DNA of 64,000 nt from Escherichia phage AV108, in sequence record OR352938.1; one strand, given 5' to 3'. Position numbers and translations under genes: made by a program. Position 1 is the first letter of the stretch, and each line of letters begins with the position of its first letter. The notes below the pieces were generated by a model. The model saw only the letters and a list, made by a program, of their open reading frames with translations. It searched no databases and had not been told where the DNA came from. Below, piece by piece: positions 17,069 to 43,661 of the stretch.

Positions 17069-17096
17069 ATTATACATTAGCTAATCATGTTGTCAA
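17069..17096 (-). promoter_or_regulatory. sigma70-type early promoter (TTGACA-N16-TATAAT)
   Basis: Minus-strand TTGACA aacatgattagctaatg TATAAT then leader CATCGAAAACAACGAGAGGA before ATG. Confidence 0.5.
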
Positions 17097-17139
17097 CACC
17101 CCAAAACGAAAAAGCCGACCCTTTCGGATCGGCTAAAAA

Positions 17140-19002
17140 TTACATGTGCTTAACGCGGTTTACCATCTCGGAGTGTTTCCCGTGGTTAAATGGACGCAGA
17201 TCAACAGATCCAAGATATCCACTAACGCGACGGATAACATTCATCTTTTCCAGATTGTCGTTGCCGCAATCAGGACAAACAAAACCAGACTCGGTCGCTC
17301 TCATTTCCTTATTAGACCCGCATACATGACATACATCAGAAGGAGTATTAACACCGAAGTAGTGCAATTTATCCATTGCATAGTCTACTACAGTTTCAAG
17401 ACCTTTCAGGTTGTTTTTCATGTCTGGGAACTCAACATAAGAGATCATGCCACCGGACGCCAGCCAGTGATAATCTTTCTCAAAGTCAATTTTCTCAAAC
17501 GGTGTAACCTTCCGGTCTACGTCAAGGTGGAATGAGTTGGTGTACCAGTCTTTATCGGTAGCACCCTTAACAATACCAAATTGCTCTCTGTCCAGTCGAT
17601 TAAATCGATAGCAAAGGCTCTCGGCTGGCGTACCGTAAAGACTAAACCCAAGTCCGGTTTCGTCCTTCCATTTTTCAGTATAATGACGCAAGATCTTAAG
17701 AATATGTTTACCGTATCGCTGCGCATCTTCCGAATCAAACGGATGAACATCAAACAGGACGCTCAATACCTCATGTAAACCAATATATCCAAGAGAGATA
17801 CTAGCGCGACCATCTTTCAACACTTCCAAAATTTCATCGTTTTGATGAATACGGAAAAATGCACCTTCGGTATATAGTACAGGAGCAACATTGGCTTTAG
17901 CGCCTTTTAAAGCGTCTACGCGACTCATGAGCGCATCAAAACAAATAGGCATACGATTAGCTAGCTCTTGTTCGAATAGCTCAATTCTGCGCATTACAGA
18001 CGCTTTACCAGCACGACGCGCGGCAATAAGAGCAATACGCGGAAGATTCAGAGTCACAACACCCAAGTTATTACGTCCGTCTAATACTTCTTCGCCTTTC
18101 TCATTATGCCATACACCCAGGAAGCTACGACAACCCATCGGGCTAACCGGAACACTAGATCCAGTGATGCTACGGTTATTCTTCGCAGAGATATAATCAG
18201 GGTAAAGACGCTTACTAGAACATTCCAATGCAAGTTGCTTAATGTCGTAGTTCGGATCTTCCGGTTTAAGGTTTAATCCTTCTTCTAAGAACATCACCAG
18301 CTTAGGAAACACCGGAGTTATACCGTCTTTACCTAAACCTTTAGTTCGAACTTTCAGGATCGCTTTCTGAATCAGTTTTTCTTCCCAGCTAGTACCCATA
18401 CCAAAGGTTAAAGTCACAAAAGGCGTTTGACCGTTGGTGGAGAACAAAGTGTTGATTTCATATTCCAACGCTTGATACCCGTCTAGCGTTTCTTTTTCTG
18501 TCTTCTCTTGTGCATAGAGAGTATCAGCTTTGATTCCGTAGGTTTCGGCATCAGCAAGGTGTTTATGATATGTTTTCTCAACGTATGGCGCTAAAACCTG
18601 ATCGATGTTTGCAATTGTGGTCCCGCCATATTGATGACTTGCCACCTGTGCGATAATTTGAGCGGTTACAGCACAAGCAACGCCGATCGATTTCGGACTT
18701 TCGATTTGTGCGCTACCCAATTTAAAACCATTCTCTAACATGTCTTTGAGATTAACAAGACAGCAGTTAGTAAACGGCATAGCGGGTGCATAATCCATAT
18801 CATGATAATGAATATCACCGTCTACATGCGCTTTATAGATGTGCTCAGGTAACACGGTTTTAGCAATCTGTTTAGACACAGCGCCAGCAATCAGATCTCG
18901 ACGTGTCGGGAATGTTCGCGCGTCTTTGTTCGCGTTCTCTTTACTTACTTCGTTTTCTTTACCCGTTGCGATCTCTGTAATGTCTTTGATTAGTTTTTCC
19001 AT
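17140..19002 (-). CDS. nrdD: Anaerobic ribonucleoside-triphosphate reductase NrdD (glycyl radical enzyme)
   Basis: 620 aa; C-terminal zinc ribbon CHVCGS...CPDCG and glycyl radical motif RRVSGYLG; uninterrupted (no intron). Confidence 0.9.
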   Translation of the reverse strand: MEKLIKDITEIATGKENEVSKENANKDARTFPTRRDLIAGAVSKQIAKTVLPEHIYKAHVDGDIHYHDMDYAPAMPFTNCCLVNLKDMLENGFKLGSAQIESPKSIGVACAVTAQIIAQVASHQYGGTTIANIDQVLAPYVEKTYHKHLADAETYGIKADTLYAQEKTEKETLDGYQALEYEINTLFSTNGQTPFVTLTFGMGTSWEEKLIQKAILKVRTKGLGKDGITPVFPKLVMFLEEGLNLKPEDPNYDIKQLALECSSKRLYPDYISAKNNRSITGSSVPVSPMGCRSFLGVWHNEKGEEVLDGRNNLGVVTLNLPRIALIAARRAGKASVMRRIELFEQELANRMPICFDALMSRVDALKGAKANVAPVLYTEGAFFRIHQNDEILEVLKDGRASISLGYIGLHEVLSVLFDVHPFDSEDAQRYGKHILKILRHYTEKWKDETGLGFSLYGTPAESLCYRFNRLDREQFGIVKGATDKDWYTNSFHLDVDRKVTPFEKIDFEKDYHWLASGGMISYVEFPDMKNNLKGLETVVDYAMDKLHYFGVNTPSDVCHVCGSNKEMRATESGFVCPDCGNDNLEKMNVIRRVSGYLGSVDLRPFNHGKHSEMVNRVKHM

Positions 19003-19014
19003 TGTATCACCTAT

Positions 19015-19037
19015 GAAAAAGCGGGATTTTCTCCCGC
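19015..19037 (-). terminator. Hairpin plus U-run immediately upstream of the nrdD RBS
   Basis: Minus-strand GCGGGAGAAAATCCCGC followed by TTTTT, then AGGTGA RBS and nrdD ATG. Confidence 0.45.
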
Positions 19038-19048
19038 TCGTTGATAGT

Positions 19049-19543
19049 TTATTTTACCAGTTCTGCTAATTCTTTTTCTTTAGCTTCTAGTTCAGCTTTA
19101 AGCTGTTTAATCTCTTGTCGCTTCTTATTAGCGGCTTCTTGCTTACTATTTCGGATAACCTGATCTAGATACAACTCCCAATCCTGAATATTTTTGATAA
19201 TGTATCCGTCAACATTAATTGGTCGGAGATTCAGTACAGCTTCCAGTTTAGTCGCAAAAACTTTAATTGCTGGTGTGAAGTATTCATATTCGTTATCTTC
19301 AAACCAATAACCTAGACTTGCATTATCAATACGAAGACGAAGTTCAAGATCAAGGTCTTTATCTTCGGTGTAAAGATCTTTCACCTGACCCAGCGAACTA
19401 ACAACAACTTTAAAACGAATTTTATCTACACCACCAAACACATCAGTAAGTATATCAGCAATTGAGCTATTAGCGCAAGATTGGTCGCTGAATGCGTCAA
19501 GGTTTTCTTTAGTTACAGTATACCAAACATCTTGTACCCACAT
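19049..19543 (-). CDS. Paralog family protein (member E)
   Basis: IRFKVVVSSLG...YWFEDNEYEYF core plus C-terminal coiled coil. Confidence 0.5.
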   Translation of the reverse strand: MWVQDVWYTVTKENLDAFSDQSCANSSIADILTDVFGGVDKIRFKVVVSSLGQVKDLYTEDKDLDLELRLRIDNASLGYWFEDNEYEYFTPAIKVFATKLEAVLNLRPINVDGYIIKNIQDWELYLDQVIRNSKQEAANKKRQEIKQLKAELEAKEKELAELVK

Positions 19544-19573
19544 AATATAATCCTCTCGTTGTTAAGTGGGAGT

Positions 19574-19601
19574 ATTATAGCATACTCCCTTCGCATGTCA
19601 A
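19574..19601 (-). promoter_or_regulatory. sigma70-type early promoter with palindrome around -10
   Basis: TTGACA tgcgaagggagtatgc TATAAT; GGGAGTAT/ATACTCCC inverted repeat flanks the -10. Confidence 0.5.
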
Positions 19602-42782: not shown

Positions 42783-42986
42783 TTAGTGATCATTAGACAC
42801 CCCACGACGATCAATTTCAAAAACTTTTTTATCATCAACGAAGCATGTCACAACTGCCTCGTTGACTTCCGCAAATTGTTGTGTTACCCACTTAAGGTCA
42901 GAGCGAAACAATGTTCTATTAATAACAAATGTTTTACCGCTCTTATCCTTACCCATAAATTTTGCTTTAACCATATCCAATTCCAT
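42783..42986 (-). CDS. Hypothetical protein (67 aa)
   Basis: Track ORF. Confidence 0.4.
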   Translation of the reverse strand: MELDMVKAKFMGKDKSGKTFVINRTLFRSDLKWVTQQFAEVNEAVVTCFVDDKKVFEIDRRGVSNDH

Positions 42987-42995
42987 ATTATCACC

Positions 42996-43154
42996 TTATT
43001 TGCTAATCGCTAAACCCAATCCGAAGAGAGCACCCGATGCTACAGTATACCCGAAAGTTTCAAAGGCAGTAAAGATATCTAAGCCACCAGCTAACAGAGT
43101 TGCAGTAAACAGAGTACCAGCTACGAACATAAAAGTTTTACCGATAAATTTCAT
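42996..43154 (-). CDS. Small membrane peptide (~52 aa; coordinates approximate)
   Basis: Hand-translated MKFIGKTFMFVAGTLFTATLLAGGLDIFTAFETFGYTVASGALFGLGLAISK; canonical GGAGAATCAAA RBS and promoter cassette upstream. Confidence 0.45.
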   Translation of the reverse strand: MKFIGKTFMFVAGTLFTATLLAGGLDIFTAFETFGYTVASGALFGLGLAISK

Positions 43155-43185
43155 TTTGATTCTCCTTTCGTTTGTTTGTGGGGGT

Positions 43186-43214
43186 ATCTTACTACCCCCG
43201 TTTCATGTTGTCAA
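43186..43214 (-). promoter_or_regulatory. sigma70-type early promoter
   Basis: TTGACA-N17-TAAGAT inside GGGGGTAGTAAGATACCCCC palindrome. Confidence 0.45.
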
Positions 43215-43220
43215 CTGTTT

Positions 43221-43595
43221 TTAAGAAAATTTTACTTCGTCTACAATGTCTTTCATGACATTGATTTCCATTCCGGTCAGAACACGTTGGAACATGTGCT
43301 GCACATACGCTTTCAGGTATTCATTTGATGGCTTACTATCGAAAGTCTTTTTAGTGTAGTAGTCATCACCGAAAGCTACTGTAATTACATTTTCGTCGTC
43401 GTTCCAAGCGATATAAGCAAATTTGCCGTTATCCCAGAAGCGAGCACTAATTGCTACTTTTGTTGAATCGAATCCTACTTCGCTGTGAGATTCAAGAACT
43501 ACTTGCGTGCCAGTTTCTTTATGAATGTAGTAGCGGGATACTAAGTCAAAGTTACGGGTGTAGTGACATTCGAATTTATCTTTAAACATCATCAT
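43221..43595 (-). CDS. Hypothetical protein (~124 aa)
   Basis: Start MMMFKDKFECHY after GGAGAATCAAA RBS. Confidence 0.5.
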   Translation of the reverse strand: MMMFKDKFECHYTRNFDLVSRYYIHKETGTQVVLESHSEVGFDSTKVAISARFWDNGKFAYIAWNDDENVITVAFGDDYYTKKTFDSKPSNEYLKAYVQHMFQRVLTGMEINVMKDIVDEVKFS

Positions 43596-43632
43596 TTTGA
43601 TTCTCCTAAGTGTGTTTCGTTTCGATATGTGC

Positions 43633-43661
43633 ATTATGCTATAGTCGTTTATGGTTGTCAA
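43633..43661 (-). promoter_or_regulatory. sigma70-type early promoter (TTGACA-N17-CATAAT)
   Basis: Conserved cassette. Confidence 0.5.

Follow-up and report, generated by a model that had tools for sequence, protein, structure and literature searches.

In a 64,000-nucleotide stretch of Escherichia phage AV108 (sequence record OR352938.1; hereafter, the window), a short unit recurs many times, mostly on the minus strand. The question raised by this locus is what the repeated unit is and whether it also serves the exchange of the genes that follow it. A first-pass annotation had listed 15 minus-strand sites between positions 17069 and 43661 and likened them to promoter-early stem-loops (PeSLs). 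We consider it very probable that the repeats are indeed the PeSL cassettes of an RB49-like T4-type coliphage, i.e., composite units of 60 to 130 bp that head early transcription units. The element is already known in this lineage, its early promoters since 2002 to 2006 and PeSLs as such since 2010.

PeSLs were first described in RB49 and phi1 (Arbiol et al. 2010, PMC2839356). As published, a PeSL combines a promoter of sigma-70 consensus with A/T-rich sequence upstream, a stem-loop that is often polyG/polyC, and, at its 3' end, a Shine-Dalgarno sequence with a start codon; the stem-loop can precede the -35 box, occupy the spacer, overlap either the -35 or the -10 box, or lie just downstream (PMC2839356). 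Each genome carries about 51 to 52 PeSLs, found mainly in hyperplastic regions upstream of ORFans (PMC2839356). In lacZ fusions, PeSL206/205 of phi1 or RB49 behaved as a strong promoter whose clones tended toward mutations in the -35 or -10 box (PMC2839356).

The repeated unit and its identity

The window derives from a Krischvirus, the group of RB49-like T4-type coliphages: RB49, Phi1, GEC-3S, pEJ01, and others match it at 96 to 97% identity over 24 kb. A megablast search with positions 17000-41000 as the query returned 75 phage records, and the 51 with at least 80% query cover (94 to 97% identity) were all Krischvirus genomes (RB49, Phi1, GEC-3S, ECD7, pEJ01, and others). Queried with thymidine kinase, viral_contigs gave only one close relative; relatives for comparison were instead drawn from the phage collection, and nine of them were used for the orthologue and indel comparisons. 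Genes of the window are encoded on the minus strand until ∼50 kb, beyond which the plus strand carries them. The only differences of AV108 from RB49 and Phi1 are small spacer and loop substitutions and neighboring insertions of endonuclease genes.

Read as reverse complements, all 15 listed sites hold the unit that the first-pass annotation had described, namely, a promoter, a conserved leader, a ribosome-binding site, and ATG. By mechanical scan and alignment, the -35 box is exactly TTGACA in 15/15 cases, and the spacer is 17 nt (n = 10), 16 nt (n = 3), or 18 nt (n = 2) long. The -10 box reads CATAAT at five sites, TATAAT at four, TAAGAT at two, and TAAAAT, TATACT, TAATAT, and TACAAT at one each; with no more than two mismatches from TATAAT at any site, these are promoters of the sigma-70-consensus type published for PeSLs. 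Upstream lies an A/T-rich region, in the form of AAAAAGTTGTTGACA-type tracts or terminator T-runs. Downstream of the -10 box, an A/C-rich leader, frequently CATCGAAACGAAACAC, leads to a ribosome-binding site, which is GGAGAATCAAA or a variant of it by one or two bases at 11 sites, GAGGATTATATT at three, and GAGAGGACAAC at one. The translation-initiation motif GAGGATTATATTATG recurs both in cassettes and at internal genes (39701-39716; also 19543, 20776, 21399, and 24909).

This combination of signals is far from chance expectation. The pattern TTGACA-N15-19-TANNNT was observed 32 times (28 of them on the minus strand), compared to 5.8 ± 2.3 times in shuffles, and GGAGAATCAAA with up to one mismatch was observed 12 times versus 1.8 expected, all nine exact copies being cassette ribosome-binding sites. 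An nhmmer profile trained on the 15 listed sites, corresponding to the alignment and motif model suggested as a check in the first-pass annotation, gave E-values of 1e-9 to 6e-17 across copies and recovered two untrained copies, at 58596-58669 (+; E = 1e-10) and 15968-15881 (-). The range of 17069 to 43661 thus fits the listed sites but is too narrow for the element: clear copies also exist at 15950 (-) and 58615 (+), and the mechanical scan found looser ones at 8814, 1998, and 33931. In the complete genome of a relative (OZ035808), the same profile gave 40 matches, which cluster in variable regions and are co-oriented on the minus strand in 39 cases.

The comparison with PeSLs was borne out by position as well as by architecture. 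The 15 listed cassettes and the one at 15950, 16 minus-strand cassettes in all, map base for base to predicted RB49 early promoters in the list of Nolan et al. 2006 (PMC1524935, additional file 3), with their -35 boxes sitting 10 to 15 nt within the early promoter (Pe) sites of that list. According to Desplats et al. 2002, as cited in Nolan et al. 2006 (PMC1524935), the RB49 early-promoter consensus agrees with 5'-end mapping. The GEC-3S record has promoters and terminators annotated at most of the homologous sites, and the cassette sites fall between annotated coding sequences of RB49, Phi1, and GEC-3S. Between copies, 60 to 100 bp are shared irrespective of the flanking genes, and each unit ends in a Shine-Dalgarno sequence and a start codon. 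What weighs against the identification is that promoter and terminator activity of the AV108 copies is predicted only.

Relative to the PeSLs of RB49 and phi1 (PMC2839356; Comeau et al. 2014, PMC4122927), the AV108 cassettes have the same lineage, sites, architecture, and clustering in variable regions, with no difference at the level of the element. The RB49 early promoters of Desplats et al. 2002 and Nolan et al. 2006 occupy the same sites, but those papers cover the promoter only and not the composite of stem-loop, leader, and ribosome-binding site. The early promoters of T4 and PeSL-like elements of the T-even internal-protein loci share the role, being early promoters for the host RNA polymerase with an A-rich UP-like region. 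However, the -35 box of T4-type promoters is GTTTAC, and their stems are weaker and A/T-rich; they are analogues, not sequence homologues, of the AV108 cassettes. Analogous cassettes were also seen in three more distant T4-like metagenomic contigs (thymidine kinase 56 to 58% identical), namely, L004 (1386-1453, 7619-7681, and 12699-12765), L005, and L006; these have a GTTTAC -35 box and the stem GTGTAGGAGTA/TACTTCTACAC across the -10 box, in accord with the 2014 follow-up (PMC4122927).

Two details of the initial description need adjustment. The sites had been called intergenic, which is accurate for most of them; upstream stop codons lie inside the -35 box or 0 to 30 nt before it, and the cassettes at 19601 and 20836 are not strictly intergenic because the TGA of the upstream gene falls within TTGACA (19596-19601 and 20831-20836, minus strand; the TGA codons of frd.2 and its neighbor). 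Each cassette had also been said to precede small accessory open reading frames (ORFs), a generalization that does not extend to the cassettes heading units with nrdD, frd.2, dam, gene 49, gene 38, regB, tk, or dmd. The positions first listed correspond to the low (-10) end of each promoter. The individual sites are given below, with promoters and terminators as predicted; z compares folding with dinucleotide shuffles, and Pe denotes the RB49 early promoter of Nolan et al. 2006.

15877..15950 (-): PeSL beyond the initial range; TTGACG, spacer stem GGGGATC/GATCCCC, TATACT, leader, GGAGAATCAAATATG; z = -3.5; Pe:33349
17037..17134 (-): PeSL; upstream intrinsic terminator (9-bp stem and T-run), TTGACA, TATAAT, GAGAGGACAACATG; z = -3.0; Pe:34495; terminator and promoter annotated in GEC-3S
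19541..19601 (-): PeSL; stem GGGAGTAT/ATACTCCC across the -10 box TATAAT; frd.2 TGA within TTGACA; z = -4.2; Pe:36999
20774..20836 (-): PeSL; stem GGGAGTA/TACTCCC over the -10 box; upstream stop within the -35 box; z = -3.0; Pe:38234
21684..21747 (-): PeSL; stem over the -10 box; GGAGAATCAACAATG; z = -2.7; Pe:39144
24907..24972 (-): PeSL; stem ATGCGGTTAT/ATGACCGCAT over the -10 box, pairing kept in orthologues via G-U changes; z = -4.5; Pe:42369
25575..25648 (-): PeSL; spacer stem GGGGATC/GATCCCC, long leader CATCAAAACGAAACACAC; loop varies and stem is kept in relatives; z = -2.9; Pe:43045
27663..27761 (-): PeSL downstream of gene 38; upstream intrinsic terminator; z = -3.6; Pe:45336; G37-3 and LF73P4 have it replaced along with gene 38
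28819..28890 (-): PeSL; weak stem GGTGT/ACACC over the -10 box; z = -1.2, the sole cassette without a significant hairpin; Pe:46502
30071..30172 (-): PeSL; upstream intrinsic terminator with a 12-bp stem; z = -5.4; Pe:47746; the gap immediately upstream is an insertion site in relatives
33866..33931 (-): looser promoter upstream of vs.1; TTGACT-17-TATTAT; no profile match; promoter at the homologous site of GEC-3S; absent from the Nolan 2006 list
34714..34777 (-): PeSL; stem GGGGGGTA/TACCCCC over the -10 box; spacer patchily replaced between orthologues; z = -2.2; Pe:52389
40635..40708 (-): PeSL; stem GGGTGTAT/ATACACCC over the -10 box; z = -5.4; Pe:57746
41341..41401 (-): PeSL; spacer stem GGGGAG/CTCCCC; core shares 95% identity with a copy lying ∼100 kb off in a relative, the flanks being unrelated; z = -3.8; Pe:58430
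41593..41725 (-): PeSL; upstream intrinsic terminator, A/T-rich tract, long leader; z = -3.5; Pe:58699
43152..43214 (-): PeSL; stem GGGGGTA/TACCCCC over the -10 box; z = -3.1; Pe:60244
43593..43698 (-): PeSL; upstream intrinsic terminator; z = -2.7; Pe:60694
58574..58674 (+): PeSL, the sole plus-strand copy, co-oriented with plus-strand genes; terminator, TTGACA-16-TATAAT, GGAGGATAAATTATG; z = -3.8; Pe:73830(+), assigned solely from an estimated offset
8759..8814 (-): looser relative; TTGACG, spacer stem GCGGGGA/TCCCCGT, TATACT; z = -3.4; below the profile threshold

Stem-loop placement and function

The first-pass annotation had treated the hairpin as an optional, upstream part of the unit. 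Instead, every core cassette has one G+C-rich stem-loop, often within the promoter itself, in one of three positions, all of them among those published for PeSLs. For 18 cassettes, including the looser copy at 8814, the best hairpin was searched for and then folded against dinucleotide shuffles; z ranged from -2.2 to -5.4 in 17 of the 18, the hairpin at 28890 alone being weak (-1.2). In class 1 (n = 6, five of them among the listed sites: 17096, 27722, 30132, 41670, 43661, and 58615 [+]), the hairpin precedes the -35 box and is followed by a T-run, and all six have the form of a canonical intrinsic (Rho-independent) terminator. In class 2 (n = 3: 15950, 25648, and 41401), as in the looser copy at 8814, it lies inside the spacer. 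In class 3 (n = 8: 19601, 20836, 21747, 24972, 28890, 34777, 40708, and 43214), it straddles the -10 box, its 3' arm finishing six bases past the -10 hexamer and directly before a conserved CAT, the expected initiation point. The stem-loop is thus placed upstream of the predicted start and would therefore be transcribed only within read-through RNA from the upstream unit.

Conservation of these stems is one of pairing more than of sequence, since the arms vary yet remain complementary across both paralogues and orthologues. GGGAGTA/TACTCCC, for instance, corresponds to GGGGGTA/TACCCCC elsewhere, an A-T to G-C change at pair 4 for which a G-T intermediate exists. In the 8-bp type, GC changes to CG, and TA, GC, and AT alternatives also occur. 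The stems GGGTGTAT, GGGGATAT, and GCGGTTAT likewise have 3' arms that fit them. Pairing amounts to 97% in register, compared to 46 to 74% with the partner shifted. A single consensus structure for all -10-box hairpins was considered and rejected, as two registers exist.

We propose that the stem-loop would terminate, attenuate, or cap read-through RNA arriving from upstream and so insulate neighboring units; for the embedded hairpins, such insulation is a prediction from sequence, with the mode of action uncertain. None of the 11 embedded hairpins is followed by a U-run. Because A/C-rich sequence comes next instead, they are not canonical intrinsic terminators, and this counts against the proposal. 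They might alternatively be 3'-end stabilizers or processing sites of the upstream mRNAs, or a protein-binding or cruciform site at the DNA level that modulates the promoter or targets recombination. The exact placement of G4...C4-like stems over promoter elements would suit such roles, and the PeSL authors themselves speculated about a DNA-binding protein. Nevertheless, we regard this alternative as fairly unlikely. A cassette has either a canonical terminator upstream or an embedded hairpin and in no case both, which suggests that the two are functionally equivalent, and no hairpin extends past the predicted +1, in keeping with a signal that acts on read-through RNA. ARNOLD predicts terminators at several of the embedded hairpins in the relative G37-3. 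Moreover, the stem-loop of PeSL211/210 cut lacZ expression as strongly as rrnB T1 (PMC2839356), although this tested element may be of any hairpin class, as RefSeq locus tags differ from the ORF numbers of the paper.

Two noncoding gaps next to cassettes are themselves structured. The segments at 41690-41880 (-) and 30140-30405 (-), 190 to 270 nt in length, fold much better than shuffles (z = -3.4 and -3.9, respectively), and since both end in the terminator of the next cassette, they may encode small RNAs. Rfam (at gathering thresholds) and ARAGORN gave no match anywhere in the window, and E-value searches of the two gaps gave only subthreshold matches, which were driven by the terminators. 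In Phi1 and SFHK24, 71 nt at 30220-30292 are replaced by a different, longer sequence (153 and 2016 nt, respectively).

Exchange between copies and gene content

The first-pass annotation had further attributed modular gene shuffling to recombination between the repeats. Given that the same sequence of ∼40 to 90 bp recurs ∼40 to 50 times per genome, the copies would serve phage recombination as portable homology, and the expected outcome would be gene conversion between copies with an occasional insertion, deletion, or replacement of the genes flanked by them. In the window, this recombination claim is only weakly visible: support consists of one junction case and conversion-like patches, with no enrichment of breakpoints.

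Between sites ∼100 kb apart, the cores of cassettes reach up to 98% identity, while the sequences flanking near-identical cores (160 nt upstream, 200 nt downstream) match only at the background of random alignments (54 to 65%). Because the flanks are at background, the similarity is confined to the cassette and does not stem from gene duplication, which was accordingly rejected as its source. Orthologous cassettes differ in multibase spacer patches although their flanks are 99 to 100% identical; in one such case, the SFHK24 orthologue of cassette 34777 bears the spacer of a paralogue located elsewhere in the genome. The junction case concerns G37-3 and LF73P4, in which the gene 38 adhesin, its terminator, and the 27722 promoter are missing and a different PeSL, one with a spacer hairpin, stands in their place. 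The right-hand junction of this swap lies in the cassette leader, where homology resumes (window 27690-28599; in the two relatives, L020 22971-23009 and L017 21465-21503).

The remaining comparisons speak against a dominant part of the cassettes in the gene shuffling of this region. Cassette positions are kept in 9/9 relatives. When indels and replacements of at least 60 nt were counted, 19 distinct events were found relative to the nine, and in only three of them (15973, 27689, and 30220) is a breakpoint no more than 60 nt from a cassette. With 60-nt zones making up 9.3% of the compared span and two breakpoints per event, ∼3.4 such events are expected by chance. At least five of the larger indels are variably present endonuclease genes (HNH, NUMOD4-HNH, and T5orf172-like). 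One of these is a 177-amino-acid homing-endonuclease-like ORF with HNH_3 and AP2 domains (45758..46291, minus strand), which lies inside a 592-nt segment (45758-46351) that is absent, with a precise junction, from 7/7 relatives whose fetched locus spans the site. Another ORF, with NUMOD4 and HNH_3 domains (35953-36546), is absent from most relatives; a third (46795-47937; CapR, DUF4379, and T5orf172 domains) is absent from some, and Phi1 has a different endonuclease in its place. Relatives, in turn, have annotated HNH insertions at 22541 and 52280. The insertion junction of the 592-nt segment itself creates a TTGACA -35 box, and the segment falls within the bin of lowest G+C content in the window (0.34, 46001-48000).

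Two other events have a different appearance. At 14166-14212 and 26405-26481, the alignments overlap by 47 and 77 nt, respectively, and relatives carry an extra 140 to 250 nt, which suggests unequal crossover between tandem paralogous small ORFs rather than cassette-mediated exchange. In SFHK24, a whole-ORF replacement at 39716-40115 is bounded by GAGGATTATATTATG; short gene-start motifs may therefore be exchange points as well.

These data allow a simpler explanation, in which the cassettes are nothing more than early promoters of the usual kind beside terminators, selection for strong signals of transcription and translation makes them similar, and recombination or shuffling has no meaningful part. 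Conserved positions, a breakpoint count near expectation, and the origin of most large indels in endonuclease genes or tandem-paralogue crossovers are all as this explanation would have it. We nonetheless judge it unlikely. The 95 to 98% identity of cores 100 kb apart, between unrelated flanks, covers even hairpin-loop and spacer bases that vary freely elsewhere. Swapped patches between orthologues with 100% identical flanks, one of them matching a paralogue, and the gene 38 junction within the leader also argue for exchange between copies, as do the recombinant mini-circles that were detected by PCR and sequenced in RB49 and phi1 (PMC2839356). The shuffling claim thus finds partial support in the window, from one clear junction replacement and signs of exchange between paralogous cassettes; indel breakpoints show no statistical enrichment at cassettes. 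Caution is warranted: among the close relatives compared here, endonuclease genes and unequal crossovers change the gene content of this region more than cassette recombination does.

A candidate RegB/S1 site and the role of the cassette

The sequence of the cassettes points to an early-gene module that may be fuller than described so far. A near-consensus sigma-70 promoter, behind an A/T-rich tract or a terminator T-run, would allow unmodified host RNA polymerase to start immediately after infection, and the A/C-rich leader together with GGAGAAUCAAA would drive translation of the first ORF. The ribosome-binding site GGAGAAUCAAA also matches the strong-site consensus of T4 RegB/S1, GG*AGRAYARAA (PMC3014915), at 10/11 positions, and the site would on that account probably help to shut off the early mRNA. 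We put forward, tentatively and as somewhat short of an even prospect, that the PeSL may also carry a built-in RegB/S1 cleavage signal, GG^AGAAUCAAA.

Like the T4 targets of RegB/S1, GGAGAAUCAAA lies in the translation initiation region of early genes, and the window also encodes regB (Pfam REGB_T4, E = 2.6e-48). Among the ribosome-binding-site-like GGA[G/U] sequences before ATG in the window, 10/21 cassette sites but only 1/44 other sites match the consensus at 10 or more of 11 positions. The sole match outside the cassettes is the ribosome-binding site of regB itself (GGAUAAUAAAA / GGATAATAAAA, 34366-34376, minus strand), which fits the reported autoregulation of regB and the GGAU Shine-Dalgarno sequence of RB49 regB (PMC3014915). 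Several points temper the proposal. Position 8 is C in GGAGAAUCAAA and A in the consensus, and that consensus is the one of T4, from whose RegB the RB49 protein is divergent (PMC3014915). The enrichment is also not independent evidence, because the ribosome-binding sites of the cassettes copy one another. Over the whole window, the consensus was matched 15 times versus 9.4 expected, which is no significant enrichment, so that the signal lies only in where the matches are placed. The founding PeSL paper (PMC2839356) does not mention RegB, a statement that excludes the 2014 follow-up, which was not checked for it.

For the most part, the value of the present analysis is confirmatory: a reader of the sequence alone recognized a published element, and the analysis adds a site-by-site map and the hairpin classes. 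The modest addition is the testable suggestion that the ribosome-binding site of the cassette doubles as a RegB target. If this is true, any gene behind a cassette would be switched on at infection and then inactivated on schedule. PeSL cassettes resemble morons, integron gene cassettes, and Botstein linker sequences: in each, small genes are flanked by expression signals of their own or by conserved linkers, which makes modular exchange possible. Unlike integron cassettes and the like, PeSLs have no integrase or attC-type site, and exchange would use general homologous recombination between the regulatory repeats. PeSLs are among the few concrete candidates for the "linker sequences" of modular phage-evolution theory, and they also account for the expression of small accessory genes in large sets by T4-type phages.

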